Of a stretch of DNA of 64,000 nucleotides, positions 3,195 to 26,314 are shown piece by piece. The position numbers and the translations under genes are program-made. This DNA comes from an uncultured Clostridia bacterium (GTDB lineage Bacteria > Bacillota > Clostridia > Christensenellales > UBA1242). The notes beneath the pieces were generated by a model, which worked only from the letters and a program-made list of their open reading frames with translations, was not told the origin of the DNA and did no database searches. The stretch's first letter is position 1, and each line of letters begins with the position of its first letter. Location: positions 40,939 through 104,938 of the forward strand of contig CALWKA010000002.1 in assembly GCA_944381155.1 (NCBI GenBank), read 5' to 3'.

Positions 3195-3641
3195 ATGAAA
3201 AACTTAAATGATAAAAACATATTTTCACTGTTCACAGGTCTTATAACTAATATTTTCAGATGTATCAATAAGATTAAACAAAAATATATGAAATCACTCG
3301 GACTAAAAAGTGGTCATGTGTCTTGTTTGTATTATTTATTCAAATTAGGGCCAATGTCGCATAAAGAACTTTGCACAGTATGTGACGAAAACAAATCAGC
3401 AATTTCTCGAAAAGTGGAATATCTGACTAACCACGACTATATCGTACGAACTCAAGAGGAAGGTAAATATAAATTGCCTATCAAATTATCTAAAAAAGGA
3501 ACGGATATAGCGAAATTTATTGATGATAAAATCAACGAAATTGTCGGCGTTGCAAACGCAGGATTGGGCAACCGCTCTAGACAGATCCTATATTCTAGCT
3601 TGGAGAAAATAAACAATAAATTGAACGAATTAATAAAATAA
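3195..3641 (+). CDS. MarR-family transcriptional regulator
   Basis: 148 aa with a winged-helix pattern (LGLKSGHVSCLYYL...LSKKG). AAGGAG Shine-Dalgarno. First gene of a co-directional cluster. Confidence 0.65.
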   Translation: MKNLNDKNIFSLFTGLITNIFRCINKIKQKYMKSLGLKSGHVSCLYYLFKLGPMSHKELCTVCDENKSAISRKVEYLTNHDYIVRTQEEGKYKLPIKLSKKGTDIAKFIDDKINEIVGVANAGLGNRSRQILYSSLEKINNKLNELIK

Positions 3642-3653
3642 GAGGGGAATAAT

Positions 3654-4505
3654 ATGGCAACTAAAATTATTATCGATTCTGCTTCGGACATTGTAAAAGA
3701 AGAAGCGGATGAATTGGGTATTATTTTGATACCTATGACTATCCGATTTGAAGATGAGGAATATTTAGACGGATATAATATAAGCAAAAAAGAATTTTTT
3801 GAAAAACTAATTGAAAACTCTACCCTACCAAAAACTAGTCAAATCAATCCAGATCGATTCAGTGAAGAGTTCAAAAAAATTGTGGATAATGGAGATGAAG
3901 CGGTGGTAATCACTATATCATCAAAACTATCTGGTACATACTCTAGTGCGGTCAAAGCTAGTGCCGAATTCAAAGATAAAATATTTGTGGTGGACAGTTT
4001 GAATGCTAGTCTAGGAGAGCGTATATTATTCAACTATGCATATAGATTGCTAAAACAAAACAAAAGTGCAAGTGAGATTGCAAACGAACTGAATAGCGCG
4101 AAAAAACGATTGCATTTGTTGGCTATGCTGGACACGCTAAAATATTTGAGAAAAGGTGGGCGAATTTCCGCGCTAGTCGCTTTTGCCGGTGAAATTATGT
4201 CAATAAAACCTGTAATTGCGGTCAAAAATGGCGAAGTAAAACTTGTGGGAAAAGCTATTGGTTCTAAAAAGGCGGGAAATCTTTTGAATAAACTTGTGAA
4301 TGAAAAGGGAATTGATTTTGATATGCCATATTGCGTGGCTTGGTCAGGCTTGGATACAAAACTTTTGGATAAATATGTGGCTGATAGCGAATCGCTGTGG
4401 AAGCACGCAACCAATGAAATTCCAAAGTGTGCTATTGGTAGCACAATTGGCACACATATTGGACCAAACGCTATTGGCGTAGCATTCTTCTCAAAGGAAA
4501 ATTAA
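3654..4505 (+). CDS. DegV-family fatty-acid-binding protein
   Basis: IIIDSASDI N-terminus and STIGTHIGPNAIGVAFF C-terminus, both typical of DegV. Confidence 0.85.
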   Translation: MATKIIIDSASDIVKEEADELGIILIPMTIRFEDEEYLDGYNISKKEFFEKLIENSTLPKTSQINPDRFSEEFKKIVDNGDEAVVITISSKLSGTYSSAVKASAEFKDKIFVVDSLNASLGERILFNYAYRLLKQNKSASEIANELNSAKKRLHLLAMLDTLKYLRKGGRISALVAFAGEIMSIKPVIAVKNGEVKLVGKAIGSKKAGNLLNKLVNEKGIDFDMPYCVAWSGLDTKLLDKYVADSESLWKHATNEIPKCAIGSTIGTHIGPNAIGVAFFSKEN

Positions 4506-14519: not shown

Positions 14520-14595
14520 TGGTGACCCCGCCGGGACTCGAACCCAGAACAAAGCCTTAGGAGGGCTCCGTAATATCCAGTTTTACTACGAGATC
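14520..14595 (-). tRNA. tRNA-Arg (anticodon CCU)
   Basis: Manual cloverleaf: acceptor GATCTCG/CGGGGTC (two G-U pairs), anticodon stem-loop GAGCC-CTCCTAA-GGCTT, T-arm CTGGG-TTCGAGT-CCCGG, encoded CCA. Confidence 0.8.
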
Positions 14596-14792: not shown

Positions 14793-17700
14793 TTATTTTG
14801 CTCTTTTCATTTTGATTGTTATTTTCTCGTCTGCGATTTCGCACTCTTCTTCTATTTCAGGATCTGTCATTTTAACATAATCAAGAGCAAGGAGTTCAGC
14901 TTTGATTTTATCTCTAAATTTATTGATGATTTCGTTCAAATCTTTGCTATCAGTCTCAAAATCAATATAAATTCTATCTTCGACATTGAAATTGGCTTCT
15001 TTTCTCAATACTTGCGCTGTACGAATCAATTCGCGCGACAAGCCTTCTAGCATCAATTCTCTATCAATTGTAACATCAAGTACGACTGTCAAATTTTCAT
15101 CATTGGCAATCACAAATTCTTCTTTTGGCTTGGTAGAAATCGTGAATAATGAACTGTCCAGATTCGCAAATTCACCCACATTTACCTTCCCCGTCTTGAA
15201 TTCTGCCACCATTCGCACCATATCAGATTCGTTGGCTGATGCTAGAAGTTGTTTTACCTTTTGAACATCTCCTTTCAATACTGCACCTGCGCGTCTAAAA
15301 TCAAGCACTAAAAATTCTATGTTGAATTTTGAATTGTCGTGTTCTAATACAACATTTTTTATATTCAATTCAGATTCAATCATATCCTTATAGATTTCAA
15401 CCGCTTTTGCCACATCTTCGTTTCCATTAATGTACAAAGTTTTTAGCGGTTGTTTCACTTTGATTTGATTTTCATTTCGTAATTTGCTAGTGAGAGTAAA
15501 TATATTTCTAACTATATCAGTTTTATGCGTCAATCCTTCGCCCGCCACCGAAAATTCATTCATAACATATCCGTTCAAAGCCACACTTTCGCTAGCATTT
15601 TTGTCAAGCGCTCTGACCGCATTTTGCCATAAATATTCACTAATAAATGGAATTATAGCAAACATTGTCATACTGATATTTTTGATAGCATAATACAAAC
15701 AAAAATATGCATTCATAGTATCGTCATTATTTTCACTCTTGTAGAATCTGCGCCTATTATTTCTGATATACCAGTTGGTGAGCTCGTCAATTAAGACTTC
15801 AAAATCTTTTGCCACCGCACCGAAATTTTGATGAGAATATGCGTTATATGCATTATTTGTAAATTCGTTGACACGATTGATGAGCCATCTATCTATAAAA
15901 GGCAGATCTTTTTCATTTGGTTTATATCCTGTCAAATCAGGATTATCAATATACGCATAAGTATTCAAAAACACATAAGCATTCCATAACCCCAACAATT
16001 TTCTTTTCACTTCGTCACAAGTATCTCGCCCAAATTTAACATCATTGATCAATGGGGTATTTACAAAATTGTATCTTATTATATCCGCGCCAATCTCTTC
16101 AAAAGCAGTGTCTAATGGGATATTATTAGGACTAGATTTTGACAATTTTTTACCATCTTGCGCGAGCAACATTGGCGTAGTAGCTATCTTTTTATATGGT
16201 GCTTTGCCCGTAATGACAACACTCATAATCAGCAAAGAATAGAACCACAACCTAATTTGCTCTTTCCCTTCAATCACGCATTCTGCTGGGAAATTCTTTT
16301 CAAAAAATTTTTTGTCTGTAAAATATTTATTTGTGCTAAAAGGTGTGATGCCCGCATCCAGCCAAGCATCTCCCACTTCCTTGATCCTCTCCACTTTTTC
16401 CCCACAATGCGGGCAAGTGATTTTTACATTGTCAATATATGGTCTGTGCAAATGCGGAATTTTTTCCACTTCTTGCTTGCTTGACAAAGATTTCAATTCA
16501 TCCAATGAACCAACCACTGTCAATTCGCCACATTTTTTGCAAGGATAGAATGGAAGTGGGAGCCCATAATATCTGTTTCTACTTATCGACCAGTCTCCCA
16601 TATTATTTAGCCAGTCTAACATACGCTTTTTCATAAACTCTGGCTGAAATTCTACATTATCGATTGTTTTAATCAAATCAGGTCTAATATCATCCACTTT
16701 GATAACCCATTGACTGATCAACCTGTATACCAACGGGCGTTTACATCTATGGCAATGTGGGTATCTGTGCGTATATTTGTGAGTGTAATAAACCTTTCCG
16801 CGTTGTTTCAAAACATCAAATATGAAATCACGCGTTTCGTCATTATTTGCATCTTTTCCTGCCAACACGCCAAAATTTGAATAAAAATATCCAGCTTCAT
16901 CAATAGGAATAATATTTTTCAATCCTATAGATTTCCCCAAATCATAGTCGCTTTCACCACAACCTGGAGCAATGTGCACCGCACCCGATCCTTCGCTAGC
17001 GTCCACCATATCCCAAGCTACAATTTTGTGTTGAAATTGTTGTTCGTCCAATTCTGGAAAGCAAGTTTCATACGCAAGGCCTACCAATTCGCTACCCTTC
17101 ACCGTCTTAATGATATGATCGACATCATCTTTCAAAACTTTCATAAGATTTGACATAACAATCAGATTTCTATCGCTCGATTTGATTTTGACAATATTAT
17201 AATCAAATTCAGGATTGACCGCCACAGCAACATTTGCGCATAATGTCCACGGAGTAGTGGTCCAAACAAGGATATCTTCATTTGAATTTTTGATAGGACA
17301 TTTGAAAAATATAGCCTGACAAGTATCATCGCGATACACATCATCCCCCGACATATCATTTTCTGCAATGCTAGTGCCACAACGCGTACACCACGGAGTA
17401 GGACGATAAGACTGCTTGATCCAACCTTTTTCGTGACATTTTTTCAAAAAATACCAAATTGCAGTGATGTTTTCATCACTATTGGTATAATAACTATCTT
17501 CCCAATTCATCCACTGCCCGAGCCTAATGGAAGATTGAGTTTGAAGCGCGGAATATTTCTTTACAGATTCCATACACGCTTTGACAAACTTGTCAATTCC
17601 ATAGCGTTCAATATCCTTTTTGCTATCCAATCCCAAAGCTTCTTCCACTTTCTTTTCCACAGGCAATCCGTGTGCATCAAATCCGTTTTGATAATGCTGG

Positions 17701-17933
17701 TCACACCCGCGCATAGCTTCGAATTTGATCATCGCATCTTTGAATGTCCTGCCATAAGCGTGATGAAGCCCCATAGTATAATTAGCAGTGATTGGACCAT
17801 CCAATGTGGTAAAATATTTGCCTGTTTTCTTATTTTTTGATTTCATTTTGTTGAAAATATCATTGTCTTGCCAAAACTTCAATATTTCCTCTTCCATTTT
17901 CACATAGTTGAGATTTGCACTTTCTTTTTTCAT
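14793..17933 (-). CDS. ileS: Isoleucine--tRNA ligase (long, type-2-like form)
   Basis: HIGH-type GLHHAYG, KMSKS-type KLSKS, CP1 editing domain, GGGAGA Shine-Dalgarno before ATG 17933. Confidence 0.95.
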   Translation of the reverse strand: MKKESANLNYVKMEEEILKFWQDNDIFNKMKSKNKKTGKYFTTLDGPITANYTMGLHHAYGRTFKDAMIKFEAMRGCDQHYQNGFDAHGLPVEKKVEEALGLDSKKDIERYGIDKFVKACMESVKKYSALQTQSSIRLGQWMNWEDSYYTNSDENITAIWYFLKKCHEKGWIKQSYRPTPWCTRCGTSIAENDMSGDDVYRDDTCQAIFFKCPIKNSNEDILVWTTTPWTLCANVAVAVNPEFDYNIVKIKSSDRNLIVMSNLMKVLKDDVDHIIKTVKGSELVGLAYETCFPELDEQQFQHKIVAWDMVDASEGSGAVHIAPGCGESDYDLGKSIGLKNIIPIDEAGYFYSNFGVLAGKDANNDETRDFIFDVLKQRGKVYYTHKYTHRYPHCHRCKRPLVYRLISQWVIKVDDIRPDLIKTIDNVEFQPEFMKKRMLDWLNNMGDWSISRNRYYGLPLPFYPCKKCGELTVVGSLDELKSLSSKQEVEKIPHLHRPYIDNVKITCPHCGEKVERIKEVGDAWLDAGITPFSTNKYFTDKKFFEKNFPAECVIEGKEQIRLWFYSLLIMSVVITGKAPYKKIATTPMLLAQDGKKLSKSSPNNIPLDTAFEEIGADIIRYNFVNTPLINDVKFGRDTCDEVKRKLLGLWNAYVFLNTYAYIDNPDLTGYKPNEKDLPFIDRWLINRVNEFTNNAYNAYSHQNFGAVAKDFEVLIDELTNWYIRNNRRRFYKSENNDDTMNAYFCLYYAIKNISMTMFAIIPFISEYLWQNAVRALDKNASESVALNGYVMNEFSVAGEGLTHKTDIVRNIFTLTSKLRNENQIKVKQPLKTLYINGNEDVAKAVEIYKDMIESELNIKNVVLEHDNSKFNIEFLVLDFRRAGAVLKGDVQKVKQLLASANESDMVRMVAEFKTGKVNVGEFANLDSSLFTISTKPKEEFVIANDENLTVVLDVTIDRELMLEGLSRELIRTAQVLRKEANFNVEDRIYIDFETDSKDLNEIINKFRDKIKAELLALDYVKMTDPEIEEECEIADEKITIKMKRAK

Positions 17934-17991
17934 AATTTCTCCCAAATTTTAATGATTATATCAAATTGAATTTATAATTCAAAATGTTTTT

Positions 17992-18017
17992 AAAAAATGC
18001 CAGCGCTTGCTGACATT
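17992..18017 (-). terminator. Attenuator terminator in the ileS leader
   Basis: On the minus strand: UGUCAGC-AAGC-GCUGGCA followed by U6, about 60 nt upstream of the ileS start. Confidence 0.7.
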
Positions 18018-18042
18018 CCATTCAATTACAGCAAAACGCTCA

Positions 18043-18093
18043 TCAAATGCTTGATGATACAATAATTTTGCCTATAATTATATTGTTTTTCAT
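18043..18093 (-). CDS. Candidate ileS leader peptide MKNNIIIGKIIVSSSI (6 Ile in 16 codons, tandem TGA TGA stops)
   Basis: Read on the minus strand: atg aaa aac aat ata att ata ggc aaa att att gta tca tca agc att tga tga. The ATG lies 7 nt after a -10 box. Confidence 0.5.
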   Translation of the reverse strand: MKNNIIIGKIIVSSSI

Positions 18094-18099
18094 AGTGTT

Positions 18100-18129
18100 A
18101 TATTAACATATTAGACAATCATTTGTCAA
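18100..18129 (-). promoter_or_regulatory. Promoter of the ileS leader transcript
   Basis: Minus strand: TTGACA (18129-18124), 18-nt spacer, TGtTAATAT extended -10 (hexamer 18105-18100). Confidence 0.55.
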
Positions 18130-18207
18130 ATATCTGCAATAAAAAATAAATTATTGATATTTGAATTAATAAATAAAACAAAAATAATTTAAAATAATTG
18201 CTTTAAT

Positions 18208-18237
18208 GAAAAAATGAAGCGAAATAAATTCACTTCA
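18208..18237 (-). terminator. Terminator of the upstream flavin oxidoreductase gene
   Basis: Minus strand: UGAAGUG-loop-CGCUUCA followed by U6. Confidence 0.65.
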
Positions 18238-18386
18238 AATTTTCTATTATTTCAATTATGAAATGTTTATTTTCAATCTGAATTGTTTTATTAAAATTAA
18301 CAATTTGAAACTTGATATTGAAATCAAATAAATGTTAGCAGATTCAAAATGGTATGCAAATTAAAACTTAATATCAAATTGATGAT

Positions 18387-20441
18387 CTAAATTTTTTCTG
18401 CCACTTCCCAGGCGCGCCATACTACAGTGCGTAGATTGCCAACTTTCAGCGCATCTCCTACAATGTGGATGTGTTTTCCTGCTTTGGCAATTGGGTTCGG
18501 ATTGTATCCGACGCAAGAAATTACATTATCTATTTGTTCCGTGTGCTCCACACCGTCTTTATCTACAATAACAATAGAATTTTGCGTAATCTCCTTCACT
18601 GAACTTTGCAAATATACAGGAACCTTGTTGTGTTTGAAATAATCACGCAAATATGATGAGTTTGCTAAACACAACCCGCGAACCGCCATCAAATCTTGTT
18701 TTGCTTCAATAATGATAGGTTTTTTCTTGTTAAGACTCAATTCATAGGCAATTTCGCATCCGGTGAGCCCGCCACCAATAATGGCAACATTCTCTCCTAC
18801 CAATTTTGTTTTGTTCAAGAAATCAATTGCTTCAATAGCGTTCTCAATTCCCTTAATATTTAGTTTTTTAGCAACCGCTCCCGTGGCTATCACAATTTCG
18901 TCCGCATCTAATTTTGAAATATCGGTTATTTCTGTATTATATTTTACTTCAATATTCAGTTTGTCAATTTGACGGCGGTACCAATCTAACAACTTTCTAT
19001 CCTGACTTTTAAACGACATAGCGCCCGCTGGAATAAACACTCCACCAAGCCTATCCGTCTTTTCATAAATTGTCACATTATGACCGCGGAGAGTAGCAAT
19101 CCTTGCCACTTCCATACCGCCAACTCCGCCACCAATTACGGCAACTTTCTTTTTCTTTTGTGCTGGTTTTATATCATATTTTCCGCCGTCCATCGTGGTA
19201 GGATTTAACGCACATCTAGACATATGTTTTGAATCTTCCATAGCCTGATCATTGGCAACGCCTTTGTAGTGCGCCATAGTTAGACACGCATTATGGCAAT
19301 AAATACAAGGTTGAATATCTTCAATCCTATCTTCCATCAATTTTGTCACCCAATGCGAATCGGTCAAAAATTGTCTTGCGACGCCCATAGCGTCAATTTT
19401 GCCATCTTTGATAGCTTTTGACGCCACTTCTGGTTCCATTTTCCCCGCACACACGACAGGAATGTCAACAAAGTTTTTAATATGTGCCACATCATCCAAA
19501 TTACAATTTTTAGGCATATAAAGTGGTGGATGCGCCCAATACCAAGCGTCATAAGTGCCGTTATCTGCATCTAACATATCATAGCCTGCATCTTGCAGAT
19601 ATTTTGCTGCAATTTCGCTCTCTTTCATATTTCTACCGATTTCTGTAAACTTTTCACCAGGAAGTGCCCCTTCACAAAAATCGCGTGTTTTGCTCACCAC
19701 TGAATAACGCAAAGTGACAGGATAATCATTGCCACATTCTGCCTTGATAGCTTTCACGATTTCCACTGGGAAACGATATCTATTTTCAAACGAACCACCA
19801 TATTCATCCGTCCTGTGATTTGTATATTCCAATGTAAATTGATCCAATAGATAACCTTCGTGCACAGCGTGTATCTCCACACCGTCCACTCCCGCTTCTT
19901 TCAACAACTTTGAAGTGAGCGCAAACGCCTTAATCATATCCTTAATTTCTTTAATGGTAATTTCTCTACATTGATAATCTTGAAGCCAACGAGATGGGAG
20001 CACGCTAGGAGAAGCGCACAAATATGGCAGATTGATAATTGGTTTCAATAATGTGGACAAAAATTTATTTTTTGCAACAGGAGCAAGCGAATTTGGAATA
20101 GAGAATGATCTACCAAATCCCGCAGTCAACTGAACAATCATTTTTGCTCCAGTTTTGTGAAATTCTTCCATATAACTTTTTAATTGCTTGAACATACTTT
20201 TCTTTTTGTATAGCCATTGTCCACCAATTAAATTTTTAAGCGGTGCGATTCCTGGGATAATCAATCCCACATTGTTTTTTGCTAGATCCATAAAGAAATC
20301 ACACGCATCCTTATCCAAATGATGTGGTTCCATCCAACCAAAAAGTGAAGTGCCACCCATTGGACAGAGAACTATTCTATTTTTAATTTCAAGATTGCCA
20401 ATTTTCCACGGCGTAAAAAGTGCTTCATATTTTTTATTCAT
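18387..20441 (-). CDS. Old-yellow-enzyme-family NADH:flavin oxidoreductase fused to an FAD/NAD(P)-binding domain (2,4-dienoyl-CoA reductase / enoate reductase-like)
   Basis: OYE N-terminus LFTPWKIGNLEIKNRIVLCPMG, Cys cluster CIYCHNAC, two GxGxxG folds (VIGGGVGG, IIGGGLTG). AAAGGAGAG Shine-Dalgarno before ATG 20441. Confidence 0.85.
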   Translation of the reverse strand: MNKKYEALFTPWKIGNLEIKNRIVLCPMGGTSLFGWMEPHHLDKDACDFFMDLAKNNVGLIIPGIAPLKNLIGGQWLYKKKSMFKQLKSYMEEFHKTGAKMIVQLTAGFGRSFSIPNSLAPVAKNKFLSTLLKPIINLPYLCASPSVLPSRWLQDYQCREITIKEIKDMIKAFALTSKLLKEAGVDGVEIHAVHEGYLLDQFTLEYTNHRTDEYGGSFENRYRFPVEIVKAIKAECGNDYPVTLRYSVVSKTRDFCEGALPGEKFTEIGRNMKESEIAAKYLQDAGYDMLDADNGTYDAWYWAHPPLYMPKNCNLDDVAHIKNFVDIPVVCAGKMEPEVASKAIKDGKIDAMGVARQFLTDSHWVTKLMEDRIEDIQPCIYCHNACLTMAHYKGVANDQAMEDSKHMSRCALNPTTMDGGKYDIKPAQKKKKVAVIGGGVGGMEVARIATLRGHNVTIYEKTDRLGGVFIPAGAMSFKSQDRKLLDWYRRQIDKLNIEVKYNTEITDISKLDADEIVIATGAVAKKLNIKGIENAIEAIDFLNKTKLVGENVAIIGGGLTGCEIAYELSLNKKKPIIIEAKQDLMAVRGLCLANSSYLRDYFKHNKVPVYLQSSVKEITQNSIVIVDKDGVEHTEQIDNVISCVGYNPNPIAKAGKHIHIVGDALKVGNLRTVVWRAWEVAEKI

Positions 20442-23507: not shown

Positions 23508-26255
23508 CTATCTCGTTCCAGCTTCGCCCATAATGACACGGACATTATCATACGCAAATATGTCAATGAACGAACGATCCATAGGGCCAGTAATGAAGAA
23601 AGCTCTACCACGAGGTGCGGTAACAATACCTTCTTGCTCTCTAGCGTTGATACCGCCAGCCGATTTATAAAGTTCAAGCAAGTCCGCCATATCATTAGGT
23701 GCCAATTGCAATATCATACTATACTGACACGCGTTGATGATTGCCGCTGATCTACGCTGAATTTCAGGAGTACCCAAGAAGTCTTTGATGTTCTGCGTAA
23801 TAACAATCTGCATACCCTGATATTTACGAATACGCTTTGCCATTTCCGCCATAAAGTTTAGCGCCACTGGGCTATCCGGATCGATAAACATATGTGCTTC
23901 GTCCACCGCTATCACGACCTGCCTTGCAATTTTCTTGCCCGTTTTTTGCTCGTATTGCTCGTTGAATCGCTTGTTGTTAATGATTTCGTTGTTTAGATAC
24001 TTAAACACGAGCAACATTTGCGCATTTGCAAGCCTATTATTTTTACTAGCAAACAATGTCTGGAAGTTGAATGTAATCAAATTTTCATCCGTGAGAATTG
24101 AAGTAGGTCCGTTCCACAAGTCAGAGTTTCGTCCGCCTGTAGCAAACTTTTGAATATAAGTTTCAAGGATCAAAAGATTGTTTCTATAAAACGCATCTTT
24201 CACCGTCTTCAATTTATCTTTTATCAATTTGAACAAATCGTCAAATATAGGATAATCTTCCGCTTTCAATTTACCAATATTTGTCTTTTCATTGATGCCC
24301 TTTTTGTTGTACAATTCAACCACCAAAGTGTTCAAAGTTTCAAACGCGTCCGAACTGATACCTTCCAAAATCGCACGGAAGAATTGTTCCAAGAATTGAA
24401 GGTGAGTAAAGAAAGTTTTATTGCTACCTTTGTTCACCAATTCATCAATACTCTTGTTGTCCACATCGCCATCATCATTTGCCGCGTCCAAGTCTTCAAG
24501 CGAAGCCATTATATGAAATGGATTAAGAATACCCGATTTATTAGTACCGACATCGATCACTTTTCCGCCCAAATTTTTCGTCATTTTATCATATTCTTGC
24601 TCTGGGTCAAGGATAAACATCTTCGTTCTATCTGCGGCAAGGTTGGTAAGAATCGTTTTCGTGGCATACGATTTTCCTGATCCCGACTTTCCTATTACCA
24701 TCATATTACTATTAATTCTACCCTTCTTCGAATCACGGGTAAAGAAGTCTATAAACACTGGGTATCCGCTAGCAGATGATTGTCCGATACAAAATCCTGC
24801 TGGATCTTGCATAATGGAGTCAACCATTGGGAATGAAGATGCAATCGTGGTAGATGGCATACTGCGATAGAAATGCTTCAAAGTGTCAATTCTGTTCACG
24901 CTAGAAGACACGAATGCGTCCACCTGCCTGCCAAACAAATCTGAATATTTGAAACCATACTGCTTCAACACATTTCGCACTTCTTTTCTGTTTTGTTCCT
25001 CGACGCGCAAATGAATTGAAATATCATACAATTGTTCGTTGTTCGTCTTAAGATCGCGTAGCAATGTTTGAAGAGAGTCAATATCTGCTTCTTTTTCGAT
25101 GATCTCACTCGAACGATAAGTTCGATCAAGTTTTGCTTCTTTTTCCATCACGGCACGGTCAATTGCTTTTTCACCTTTTTCTTTATCCACAGGCATAATG
25201 TTCATAATGACCCTTGTGCCCAACTGATTGAATATAGGATACGCCCAACCGTTGCCCACTTCAAGCGGATAATCTGTGATGACCATTTGCTTGTACATTT
25301 TTTTGTCCATCTCAACGCGTGCCACTTTGAAGTTGACTCTATTAGGCATAACCCAATTGTTCACTTGAGATGGTGCCAATCCTTCAATTTCTGATTCAGC
25401 ATAAGTGGACTGATAATTCGATTTCAAGAAGCTGATCAAGTCGTCTTCTGTTAAAATCTTTGCACTGATTGTATATTGTCCTGTGCCTAAATCATTGACT
25501 ATACCGATTGCGGTGTCTTCAAGGTTGACCTTATCCTGCCCGTAAAGTACCAAATAAAAATGATTTTGCAAAATAGGTTCTGCCCTGATAGCATTATTCA
25601 ATCTCTCCACGCGCTCTCTGAATATCAGCGAACGACTATCCATTTCTCCCGCCGTGTACTGCCCCTGCTCATACAATTCATTCAAAAGGCTGTATTTAAC
25701 ATCGTCGTTTTTCAAAAATATATCAAATCGCATCGGTTTAACCGTCTTGATAAGACTCGCACGCTGATATTGTGAAATTCGTTTAAGCGCTTTACTGAAT
25801 GTGTAGATTATTGAATCTTGCGCGTCCTCTTGCATCAAGTCGAGCGCCACAGGATCCATTTCTATCACCATACCCGCATAATCACCAAAATTAATATACT
25901 TACCTATCTCTATGTTGAAGAAAGGGGTGAGTTTGTCCATAGGAGTACACCCGCGCTTTTTGCCAAGTTTGTTATTTATATATTTTTTTGGAAAGGCTGC
26001 AAAACGAATGATAAGTATGATTGAACTATACAGCCTTAACCCATCGTCAATTGGTAGATACATAACCACCGTGATAGCGATCCAAGCGATCAGTGCATAC
26101 CAACGATAGTCCACCCCGCCAATTCTAAATAAGTTGCTTGCAATGATGACGATTGCAAAAGCAATACAAACAATAGCGAGAATAATATCTCCAAATGTAA
26201 TATTTTTCAAAAATTCAGTTTTTACCCTAGTCTTGCCAGGAATATATCTAATCAT
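23508..26255 (-). CDS. VirB4/TrsE-family T4SS ATPase with an N-terminal VirB3/PrgI-like two-TM extension
   Basis: Walker A GKSGSGKSY, Walker B VVIAVDEAHMF, GILNPFHI. The N-terminal ~100 aa has two hydrophobic helices after KTRVKTEFLKNITFGD. Confidence 0.85.
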   Translation of the reverse strand: MIRYIPGKTRVKTEFLKNITFGDIILAIVCIAFAIVIIASNLFRIGGVDYRWYALIAWIAITVVMYLPIDDGLRLYSSIILIIRFAAFPKKYINNKLGKKRGCTPMDKLTPFFNIEIGKYINFGDYAGMVIEMDPVALDLMQEDAQDSIIYTFSKALKRISQYQRASLIKTVKPMRFDIFLKNDDVKYSLLNELYEQGQYTAGEMDSRSLIFRERVERLNNAIRAEPILQNHFYLVLYGQDKVNLEDTAIGIVNDLGTGQYTISAKILTEDDLISFLKSNYQSTYAESEIEGLAPSQVNNWVMPNRVNFKVARVEMDKKMYKQMVITDYPLEVGNGWAYPIFNQLGTRVIMNIMPVDKEKGEKAIDRAVMEKEAKLDRTYRSSEIIEKEADIDSLQTLLRDLKTNNEQLYDISIHLRVEEQNRKEVRNVLKQYGFKYSDLFGRQVDAFVSSSVNRIDTLKHFYRSMPSTTIASSFPMVDSIMQDPAGFCIGQSSASGYPVFIDFFTRDSKKGRINSNMMVIGKSGSGKSYATKTILTNLAADRTKMFILDPEQEYDKMTKNLGGKVIDVGTNKSGILNPFHIMASLEDLDAANDDGDVDNKSIDELVNKGSNKTFFTHLQFLEQFFRAILEGISSDAFETLNTLVVELYNKKGINEKTNIGKLKAEDYPIFDDLFKLIKDKLKTVKDAFYRNNLLILETYIQKFATGGRNSDLWNGPTSILTDENLITFNFQTLFASKNNRLANAQMLLVFKYLNNEIINNKRFNEQYEQKTGKKIARQVVIAVDEAHMFIDPDSPVALNFMAEMAKRIRKYQGMQIVITQNIKDFLGTPEIQRRSAAIINACQYSMILQLAPNDMADLLELYKSAGGINAREQEGIVTAPRGRAFFITGPMDRSFIDIFAYDNVRVIMGEAGTR

Positions 26256-26314
26256 CTTACCCCTTCTTGTTTATCTAAAATTAAAAGGTAGACAGGTCAA
26301 TATGAATTATAATA

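Follow-up and report, generated by a model that had tools for sequence, protein, structure and literature searches.

A candidate ribosome-mediated attenuator upstream of ileS in a gut clade of Christensenellales

How is ileS controlled in a clostridial genome whose ileS leader carries no recognizable T-box? The question arises from a 64-kb stretch of DNA (the window) in which an original prediction, made by reading the sequence, placed a short isoleucine-rich ORF and an intrinsic terminator ahead of the gene. The analysis described here leads us to regard this element as probably a transcription attenuator of the ribosome-mediated (leader-peptide) kind, which adjusts ileS transcription to the supply of charged tRNA-Ile. 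The element and ileS both lie on the minus strand, and all coordinates refer to that strand (Table 1). The ileS product matches TIGR00392 (ileS) at 730 bits, with MupA/MupB-like matches at about 565 bits that fall under their cut-offs, and it is a predicted type-2-like isoleucyl-tRNA synthetase. A tRNA gene downstream of ileS was considered as a tRNA-Ile and rejected, being tRNA-Arg(CCU).

Table 1. Features of the putative attenuator and of ileS in the window, in the order in which they are read.
Feature	Coordinates	Strand	Sequence or extent	Basis or remark
P1 -35 hexamer	18124..18129	-	TTGACA	read directly from sequence
P1 extended -10 box	18100..18108	-	TGtTAATAT	read directly from sequence
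Leader ORF	18043..18093	-	MKNNIIIGKIIVSSSI, 16 codons (18093-18046) + TGA	read from sequence
Regulatory core	18061..18081	-	I-I-I-x-x-I-I	aligned codon columns
Segment 1, 5' strand of the predicted anti-antiterminator	18065..18080	-		minimum free energy (MFE) structures; overlaps Ile codons and GGCAAAA
Predicted inner hairpin	18038..18060	-	UCAUCAA-GCAU-UUGAUGA	MFE structures; tandem stops within 3' arm
Segment 2	18023..18041	-	GAGCGUUUUGCUGUAAUUGA	alternative partner of segment 1 or segment 3
Segment 3	18002..18012	-	CAGCAAGCGCU	covers the 5' arm and loop of the terminator and the first part of its 3' arm
Predicted intrinsic terminator	17992..18015	-	UGUCAGC-AAGC-GCUGGCA + U6	hairpin 18015-17998, T6 17997-17992
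P2, second promoter-like site	17955..17982	-	TTGAAT-16-TGaTATAAT	sequence; between terminator and ileS
ileS, regulated gene	14793..17943	-	1046 aa	SD GGGAG 17943-17939; ATG 17933

Originally described from a single sequence, the mini-ORF proved to be present upstream of ileS in relatives as well. The same architecture was found at 37 of 80 fetched related genome loci (Christensenellales / Ca. Onthoplasma MAGs), which span 55-91% IleS identity, and on two metagenome contigs, both times upstream of ileS. Detection by motif gave 35 loci and a motif-independent scan, in which a promoter had to be followed within 5-9 nt by the ATG of a short ORF and then by a terminator, gave 36; one locus, L008, is included despite its diverged motif. 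Applied to both strands of the window, the motif-independent scan returned exactly one match, the ileS leader, and in 808 kb of related loci it returned 39 matches of which 36 were the ileS leader. The element occurs as a single copy per locus, always 5' of ileS, and neither it nor its design was found before any other gene in the window, the 808 kb of loci or a metagenome scan. All measurements below that are given for 36 elements refer to the window and 35 loci.

With a genome of about 33% G+C, where Ile codons abound and short ORFs are frequent, an A+T-rich ORF might have arisen by chance beside the terminator of another unit and have no regulatory role. The conservation just described makes such an accident extremely improbable, as does the uniqueness of the scan match within the window. 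Furthermore, the gene upstream of the element has its own terminator at 18237-18215, and the leader of the window has a predicted fold of -29.8 kcal/mol with a z-score of -3.7 relative to shuffled sequences.

The promoter that had been proposed, with 18 nt between its two boxes, was recovered at exactly the expected positions and is a strong one by its sequence (P1; Table 1). Most loci have a 17-nt spacer. Across the 36 aligned elements the -35 hexamer reads TTGACA in 30 and TTGACT in 6, and 25 have the TGn of an extended -10 box. The original prediction had overlooked that the ATG of the leader ORF, at 18093, lies only 6 nt 3' of the -10 box and lacks a Shine-Dalgarno sequence; this spacing is 6 nt in 25 of the 36 elements, and the others have 7-10 nt. 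The transcription start would then fall on the A of the leader ATG or an adjoining nucleotide. Because the ATG follows the -10 box by 6 nt and has no Shine-Dalgarno sequence, the leader mRNA is probably leaderless, with a 5'-terminal AUG. Translation of the leader ORF would depend on leaderless initiation, which is uncommon in Firmicutes and is deduced here solely from the conserved 6-nt spacing; this weighs against the model. Counted from the putative start at 18093, the leader extends 102 nt to the end of the T-tract, a modest correction of the approximately 110 nt estimated at first, and 160 nt to the ileS ATG.

A second question was whether the leader might be a T-box after all. The region 17800-18500 gave no Rfam T-box match at E <= 10, and other curated RNA families, including the Rfam amino-acid leaders, produced chance-level unrelated matches only in the same interval. 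At the gathering threshold, the whole window contained only OLE RNA and two tRNAs, and 13 leader-peptide loci contained no Rfam family, T-box included. A profile built from outgroup ileS T-boxes likewise found no match in the window or in any leader-peptide locus. A T-box was thus rejected as an explanation for the window leader, and the absence of one that the original prediction had asserted holds.

That prediction had also remarked that ileS is usually under T-box control in Firmicutes, which agrees with what was found in relatives: a T-box-like leader occupies the homologous position at ileS in 32 outgroup loci, the sister clade included. The T-box model RF00230 matched locus L060 at 67.7 bits (E = 1.5e-14) and the sister-clade locus L028 at 36.8 bits (E = 1.2e-6), and an AUC codon stands at the apparent specifier position of the outgroup T-boxes. 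None of the outgroup T-boxes reached the Rfam gathering threshold, and the search by E-value identified them as divergent T-boxes under the curated cut-off; the claim of T-boxes in relatives is therefore based on sub-threshold but significant Rfam matches together with profile homology. In a tree of IleS proteins, built by the neighbor-joining distance method and carrying no support values, the 36 leader-peptide sequences (35 loci and the window) form one clade nested among T-box loci. Taken together, it looks as if the putative leader-peptide attenuator has replaced the ileS T-box of its relatives.

We turn now to the leader ORF. The 16-codon, isoleucine-rich reading frame is as originally described, including its two consecutive TGA stops (18045-18043 and 18042-18040), and in the window 6 of its 16 codons specify Ile. 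The regulatory core consists of Ile codons 5-7 (18081-18073), the codons GGC AAA, and Ile codons 10-11 (18066-18061). This core stays in register across all three peptide subfamilies, with Ile at its five columns in 27, 32, 34, 29 and 34 of the 36 elements and synonymous variation among ATT, ATC and ATA. At the two codons inside the core the amino acid varies and the pairing bases are kept. Save for the Ile runs, the peptide sequences diverge widely between subfamilies, and what is kept is the frame, the start and the position of the stop. Over the 36 elements, Ile accounts for 227 of 630 codons in frame 0 (36%), compared with 18 of 596 (3%) and 49 of 596 (8%) in the other frames and with a background of 9.2% in the window's proteins. 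Composition-matched shuffles contained 77 +/- 8 Ile codons, so that the observed count lies 19 standard deviations above them, and it was reached by none of 2000 shuffles.

Immediately 3' of the stop codons, starting 3 nt past the first stop, is the segment GCGUUUUGCUG, with GCGTTTTGCTG at 18039-18029 in the window. It is part of segment 2, the most conserved sequence within the element. The original prediction had correctly located a pairing segment after the stop but misplaced its end, since GAGCGUUUUGCUG is 13 nt long and spans 18041-18029 instead of 18040-18029. The distance from the stop to segment 2 is 3-4 nt in types A and C, window included, and 10-12 nt before the segment 2 core in type B; masking by a terminating ribosome would therefore be partial in type B.

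Three predicted helices that exclude one another are conserved in the element. The first joins segment 1, which overlaps the Ile codons, to segment 2; this long helix was missing from the original prediction. Held in its fixed register it has 81% of its cells paired across the 36 elements, as opposed to 33-55% when the partner is slid. The second is the proposed antiterminator, formed by segments 2 and 3. In the window it comprises 11 bp between AGCGUUU(U)GCUG (18040-18029) and CAGCAAGCGCU, including a G-U pair and interrupted by a single bulged U, much as first suggested, and over the 36 elements 88.9% of its cells are paired, with compensatory changes. Alignment columns 84 and 133 covary (UA 21, UG 7, AU 4, GC 1, GU 1), and the covarying position of the antiterminator is unpaired in the terminator loop. 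On four measures, the values observed for the antiterminator were reached by none of 500 shuffles. L008 has the diverged pair AGUGUUU / AAACACU with the pairing logic unchanged. The third helix, the terminator, matches its earlier description down to the six-T tract and has 92% of its cells paired. Equivalents of the inner hairpin, differing in sequence, are found in other subfamilies (ACAUCUA/UAGAUGU and UUCUAC/GUAGAA). A single inner-hairpin consensus for the three subfamilies was dropped because the MAFFT alignment is out of structural register at this hairpin, and we relied on per-sequence folds for that reason.

Folding calculations indicate how the helices might compete. For the free RNA, the MFE structure combines the segment 1:2 helix with the terminator in 35 of the 36 elements. 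In every one of the 36, the antiterminator is predicted to exceed the terminator in stability. Folding under a ribosome mask, as had been suggested at the outset, gave support that depended on the U-tract. When segment 2 was free and the U-tract was excluded, because at the decision point it belongs to the RNA:DNA hybrid, the antiterminator was the MFE structure in about 30 of the 36 elements, whereas with the U-tract allowed the terminator was still the MFE structure in many elements at equilibrium under the stalled-ribosome mask. Thus the model requires kinetic, co-transcriptional formation of the antiterminator, like that in classical attenuators.

Conserved helices of this kind could also be moved without translation. 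Binding of a ligand or tRNA, or of a protein (IleRS, or a TRAP-like protein on the AUU repeats), might shift them directly, with the ORF as an A+U-rich by-product. It would suit such a switch that all three helices (segments 1:2, antiterminator, terminator) are conserved RNA structures in themselves, that the ORF has no Shine-Dalgarno sequence, and that the sensor replaced, the T-box, was RNA-only. We nevertheless consider it improbable. The excess of Ile codons is restricted to the reading frame that the ATG sets, synonymous variation occurs at the Ile positions, and the spacing between -10 box and ATG and the short distance from stop to segment 2 are kept amid sequences that otherwise differ. 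In addition, neither a T-box nor another Rfam match was obtained, and beyond the helices there is no conserved unpaired pocket.

A leader-peptide attenuator accounts for the frame-specific Ile codons, the conserved alternative helices and their compensatory changes, which together support the attenuation logic of the original prediction; whatever that hypothesis predicts at sequence level and could be checked was borne out. The present model is fuller than that logic, as it includes an anti-antiterminator (segments 1:2) that overlaps the Ile codons. Transcription from P1 would begin at the A of the ATG or beside it, and a ribosome would load on the resulting leaderless mRNA once its 5' end emerges. 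When Ile-tRNA is plentiful, the ribosome would reach the tandem stops and cover segment 2 (GCGUUUUGCUG); with no ribosome present, segment 1 would pair with segment 2. In either state segment 3 would be free, the terminator and its U6 tract would form, and transcription would end about 60 nt short of ileS. When Ile-tRNA is scarce, a ribosome should stall at the III or II runs, which flank and overlap segment 1, leaving segment 2 unpaired and uncovered to pair with segment 3 as soon as the latter is made (predicted dG about -16 kcal/mol, versus -9 for the terminator). The resulting antiterminator would block the terminator, and RNA polymerase would read into ileS. Since IleRS itself makes Ile-tRNA, the feedback loop would be homeostatic. 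These steps, from the transcription start and leaderless translation to ribosome stalling, termination and the Ile response, are deduced from comparative sequence analysis.

An additional feature missed by the original prediction is P2, the promoter-like site between the terminator and ileS. In the window P2 is probably a basal promoter for ileS, and it could there free ileS expression from most of the attenuator's control. By eye, P2-like sites were seen in L003, L007, L031, L033 and L081, and they are confined to the window and its closest relatives. Such a good promoter-like site, next to a unit with a promoter and terminator of its own, allows the promoter-to-terminator unit to be read as an independent small gene, encoding an sRNA or a hydrophobic peptide, with ileS transcribed from P2 and read-through incidental. 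The type C peptides, which are hydrophobic, could fit this reading, as could similar leaderless ORFs that are not Ile-rich in L004, L005 and L041. We judge it highly unlikely on four counts. At least 14 loci have just 13-30 nt between the end of the terminator and the ileS ATG, a gap with no room for P2 or any other promoter, so that ileS must be transcribed through the terminator; an independent unit would leave this essential gene promoterless. The element is found upstream of ileS exclusively, its peptides differ widely across subfamilies save for the Ile runs, and a covarying helix that would destroy the terminator is conserved, which a plain terminator does not need.

The type C peptides have 20-23 residues and terminate in LPIK(L/M), and the LPIK C-terminus is common to the small ORFs of those three loci. 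The shared ending hints at a peptide-level function unrelated to Ile sensing. A broader and rather doubtful proposal builds on both the leaderless start and these peptides. In Firmicutes the prevailing view is that RNA polymerase runs ahead of the ribosomes, which would explain why RNA-only sensors such as T-boxes dominate. A leaderless start might be the key adaptation that makes ribosome-sensed attenuation workable in a Firmicute, by immediate loading of the 70S ribosome, and the type C ORF (..ILPIKL) might be, or derive from, a leaderless small hydrophobic protein. The 5'-terminal AUG would then let an element of 100 nt replace a T-box of 200-250 nt, and the hydrophobic protein ancestor would survive as a separate gene, not rich in Ile, in L004, L005 and L041. 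If true, either the gene of a small protein was recruited for sensing or a single ORF serves two functions.

A comparative study in 2005 knew of no Firmicute aminoacyl-tRNA synthetase (aaRS) gene under classical attenuation (PMC1262725). No report of an ileS leader peptide or attenuator was found in the literature searched, in which subscription journals are thinly covered, and such absence is not proof. In its predicted architecture the element is a member of the leader-peptide attenuator class. Among the fetched loci, a clade of uncultured gut Christensenellales would appear to have switched its sensor from the near-universal Firmicute ileS T-box, in which RNA reads the tRNA directly, to a leader peptide, through which the ribosome reads tRNA charging, while gene, signal and output stayed the same. 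The conserved and putatively 5'-terminal AUG may offer a compact natural system for studying transcription-translation coupling in Clostridia. Rfam-based annotation misses the element, which forms a definable family for modelling and annotation. Finally, the model predicts that ileS expression in these organisms responds to Ile starvation and to IleRS inhibitors.

In E. coli and other gamma-proteobacteria, pheST is controlled through the pheM leader peptide with its cognate codons, alternative hairpins and an intrinsic terminator. The candidate element would resemble pheST in placing an aaRS operon under classical attenuation by a short leader ORF rich in cognate codons. It differs in that pheST belongs to another phylum and another amino acid, has an ORF led by a Shine-Dalgarno sequence, shares no sequence similarity and displaced no T-box. 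The pheST operon is cited as the precedent for aaRS attenuation, and attenuators with candidate leader peptides have been predicted for trpS and leuS of Streptomyces (PMC1262725). The latter are likewise non-proteobacterial aaRS genes preceded by candidate leader peptides; they are actinobacterial, concern other amino acids and are predictions only.

The mycobacterial poly-Cys leaderless ORFs are leaderless leader-peptide attenuators. In Corynebacterium glutamicum, the ilvBNC leader IlvL is also leaderless and is explained by a three-hairpin model in which Ile, Val and Leu codons are sensed (PMC11857589). The likeness of these actinobacterial systems to the present element is a leader peptide that here, too, would be made from a leaderless transcript, along with the three-hairpin model; in contrast, they serve biosynthetic operons and not an aaRS gene, occur where leaderless mRNAs are common, and have no sequence similarity to it. 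Within Firmicutes, proposals include a Leu-rich ilv peptide in S. aureus and predicted His leaders in the B. cereus group, Peptostreptococcaceae and Erysipelotrichales (PMC5794164, PMC9413887). These are ribosome-sensed, as the present element would be, and of the same phylum, and the his cases occur in lineages without the T-box or repressor of their relatives, whereas their targets are biosynthetic and not aaRS genes and their ORFs, as far as described, are not leaderless. From the T-box of Firmicute ileS (RF00230), the element of the window differs in its putative mechanism: the T-box binds uncharged tRNA through Stem I and the T-box bulge without translation, whereas the window element has no Stem I, specifier loop or T-box sequence and is about half as long. 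The two would nevertheless be alike in serving the same gene, in taking tRNA-Ile charging as their signal, and in setting an antiterminator against an intrinsic terminator.

The Ile-rich leader described upstream of ileS in the original prediction is confirmed, with coordinates that proved accurate within one base. Its promoter (P1), leader ORF, stops and terminator were all as reported, but three features had been overlooked: a long helix between the Ile-codon strand (segment 1) and the strand after the stops (segment 2), a leader ORF that lacks a Shine-Dalgarno sequence and starts at the expected P1 transcription start, and a second promoter-like site (P2). The free leader RNA folded into this 1:2 helix plus the terminator at -29.8 kcal/mol (z = -3.7). 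The BaiCD-like flavoenzyme gene upstream of the leader, which ends at 18387, is followed by a terminator of its own (18237-18215), and the leader element is therefore a separate unit.

Features of the ileS leader region in the window
Feature	Position	Strand	Remark
P1 -35, TTGACA	18129-18124	minus	sequence reading
P1 -10, TGtTAATAT	18108-18100	minus	18-nt spacer from -35
Leader ORF, MKNNIIIGKIIVSSSI	ATG at 18093	minus	16 codons; ATG six bases past -10
Tandem stops, TGA TGA	18045-18040	minus	close leader ORF
GCGTTTTGCTG	18039-18029	minus	directly after stops
Terminator, TGTCAGC-AAGC-GCTGGCA-TTTTTT	18015-17992	minus	sequence reading
P2, promoter-like, TTGAAT-16-TATAAT	17982-17955	minus	between terminator and ileS
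ileS	SD GGGAG 17943-17939; ATG 17933	minus	1046-aa isoleucyl-tRNA synthetase, type-2 (MupA/MupB-like)

Conservation of the Ile-rich mini-ORF, named in the original prediction as a check, was borne out across related loci. One genome per species was scanned with the IleS protein, yielding 80 loci (51-91% identity), all from uncultured gut Clostridia labelled Ca. Onthoplasma, Christensenella or Clostridia. The motif GCGTTTTGCTG ... CGCTGGCATTTTT was found with at most two mismatches upstream of ileS in 35 loci, and diverged versions were seen in L017 and L008. There is one copy per locus, always at ileS, and a motif scan of metagenomes added two further contigs, both with the leader upstream of ileS. 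A motif-free scan was also made, requiring a sigma-70-type promoter, an initiation codon 5-9 nt past the -10, an open frame of 7-40 codons and a terminator. Its single site in the window was the ileS leader element; in 808 kb of loci it returned 39, of which 36 were the ileS leader.

Across the 36 elements (the window plus 35 loci) the -35 is TTGACA in 30 and TTGACT in 6, most loci have a 17-nt spacer, and 25 have a TGn extended -10. The distance from -10 to ATG is exactly 6 nt in 25/36; the others have 7-10 nt. With such spacing the AUG would sit at the 5' end or no more than ~3 nt from it, and the leader mRNA would be leaderless. Three peptide subfamilies, A (MKNNIIIGKIIVSSSI), B (MYKAIIIRNIIINI) and C (MGILSFIFAVIIISKIILPIKL), share the core I-I-I-x-x-I-I in register. 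Five core codon columns encode Ile in 27, 32, 34, 29 and 34 of the 36 elements, with exchanges among ATT, ATC and ATA; the two x codons vary (GK, SK, SN, RN, SY) while the bases pairing with segment 2 are kept. In-frame Ile accounts for 227 of 630 codons (36%), versus 3% and 8% in the other two frames and 77 +/- 8 codons in composition-matched shuffles. The proteins of the window contain 9.2% Ile and show a similar codon choice. Segment 2 begins 3-4 nt after the stop in types A and C and 10-12 nt after it in type B. By these measures the leader ORF looks like a frame that is translated and senses Ile.

Helix pairing was counted in a 36-sequence alignment. The terminator is paired in 92% of cells. 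The antiterminator, formed by segment 2 with segment 3 (the terminator 5' arm, loop and start of the 3' arm), is paired in 88.9%, versus 29-50% in slid controls, and its observed value was reached by 0 of 500 shuffles on four measures. Columns 84:133 vary on both sides (UA, UG, AU, GC, GU); column 133 lies unpaired in the loop of the terminator, so this pattern is accounted for by the antiterminator alone. Segments 1 and 2 pair in 81% of cells in a single fixed register, with type B using a shifted one (CGCAAC:GUUGCG). In L008 both pairing partners differ in sequence (AGUGUUU / AAACACU) and the logic is the same. When sequences were folded individually, the free RNA formed the 1:2 helix plus terminator in 35/36; with segment 2 free and the U-tract omitted, the antiterminator was the MFE structure in about 30/36. 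The antiterminator (-10 to -16 kcal/mol) was lower than the terminator hairpin (-5 to -12 kcal/mol) in all 36. When the U-tract was allowed to pair, the terminator was often favoured at equilibrium, and the decision must therefore be kinetic, as in classical attenuators.

These results support the attenuation interpretation of the original prediction on all sequence-level tests, and we consider ribosome-mediated Ile attenuation of ileS quite probable. With Ile-tRNA scarce, a ribosome would stall on the Ile runs flanking segment 1, leaving segment 2 free to capture segment 3 and preclude the terminator. With Ile-tRNA ample, the ribosome at the stop would cover segment 2 and the terminator would form; with no ribosome, the 1:2 helix would likewise lead to termination. 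Because the ileS product charges tRNA-Ile, the loop would be homeostatic. What is inferred from sequence comprises the transcription start, leaderless initiation, ribosome stalling, termination and the response to Ile.

The T-tract ends 13-30 nt from the ileS ATG in at least 14 loci, which leaves room for a ribosome-binding site only, so transcription of ileS in these loci must come from P1 and pass the terminator. A P2-like promoter past the terminator is present in the window and its closest relatives and probably adds a basal ileS level to the regulated P1 transcript. By eye, a perfect palindrome (TTGAATT-ATA-AATTCAA) spans the -35 and spacer of P2 (17955-17982, minus strand), and other short palindromes lie at this position in relatives (e.g. 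AGAAATTTCT in L031); the palindrome may serve as an operator or form an RNA/DNA hairpin. One extra gene separates leader and ileS in L008 (a 109-aa ORF, 3670-3999) and in L051 (a histidine-phosphatase-like ORF, 3380-3991), where the attenuator would control a two-gene operon. Between terminator and ileS, L021, L022, L015 and L011 have insertions of 70-300 nt with repeated GC-rich palindromic blocks (e.g. GTCACCCTGAGCG..., ...TCAGAATGACA) resembling small mobile repeat elements.

In L004 (3739), L005 (3736) and L041 (3761) the type A leader is closely preceded, on the plus strand, by another small leaderless ORF with the layout TTGACA-17-TAnnnT-6-ATG. Its peptides (MTVYQFVLLIVMLGWMFLPIKF, MSIFQFILLVVMAAWAFLPIKF and MVQFIVVVLMICWAFLPVKF, respectively) resemble type C leader peptides (..ILPIKL) and hold only 2-3 Ile. 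In L004 and L005 it is followed by a covarying hairpin and T-run, the hairpin loop containing the -35 of the leader promoter. This ORF may have arisen by duplication, with labour divided between the copies, or may encode a small membrane peptide that is conserved.

Elsewhere in the window are a tRNA-Arg(CCU) gene ~200 nt downstream of ileS on the same strand (14520-14595, minus), a full-length OLE (ornate large extremophilic) RNA (60042-60619, plus; 346 bits) and a conjugation gene cluster (23508-34272) of the kind named after mycoplasma ICEs. The cluster encodes a VirB4-like ATPase of the Mbov_0397 family (555 bits), an Mbov_0396-family membrane protein and a CD1115-type VirD4-like coupling protein, and is probably an integrative conjugative element.

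The original prediction had also reported no conserved T-box sequence here, and neither Rfam scans nor an outgroup-leader profile found a T-box. At gathering threshold Rfam detected only OLE RNA and two tRNAs in the whole window, a permissive scan of 17800-18500 gave only chance-level matches to unrelated families, and no Rfam family fell on the leader in 13 homologous loci. The Rfam T-box model did score outgroup L060 (67.7 bits, E = 1.5e-14) and sister-clade L028 (36.8 bits, E = 1.2e-6), below the curated 93 bits because their 3' part is divergent; in both leaders Stem I contains AGAGAG and GGUGAAA, and AUC occupies the specifier position. When the L060 leader was used to seed a profile, homologous leaders were recovered in 32 outgroup loci, and none in any leader-peptide locus or the window. 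In a neighbor-joining IleS tree without support values, the 36 leader-peptide sequences (the window and 35 loci) form one clade, sister to T-box loci L025, L026 and L028 and lying within a set of T-box lineages. A homologous leader-peptide element is also present in L050 and L054, with IleS far from the main clade among T-box loci in the same tree, which suggests transfer of the element, transfer of ileS with its leader, or an older origin. A third kind of leader occupies the ~90 nt immediately preceding ileS (about 3910-4000) in L032, L035, L037, L038 and L040: a promoter (e.g. TTGCAA..TGGTAGAAT), at once a short A+T-rich hairpin (AATGTAAA-T-TTTACATT), a T-run and then an SD, with no ORF and no T-box. 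The leader-peptide element has taken the place of the T-box at ileS, and this stands out together with an ORF that appears to be leaderless.

The leader anatomy is that of the trp, his, ilv and pheST attenuators. In gamma-proteobacteria, pheST is an aminoacyl-tRNA synthetase operon attenuated via its cognate leader peptide, and leader-peptide attenuation was predicted for trpS and leuS in Streptomyces; that work placed most synthetase genes of Firmicutes under T-box control and "none by classical attenuation" (PMC1262725). For biosynthetic operons of Firmicutes, attenuators with leader peptides were proposed later (PMC5794164; PMC9413887), and a leaderless leader peptide was described for ilvBNC of C. 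glutamicum (PMC11857589). The literature searched, with incomplete coverage, held no ileS leader-peptide attenuator. Given these precedents and no ileS case among them, we rate the mechanism class as known and the gene, lineage and sequence family as new. The principle is not new; the ileS attenuator is a clean comparative-genomics finding and a good experimental system.
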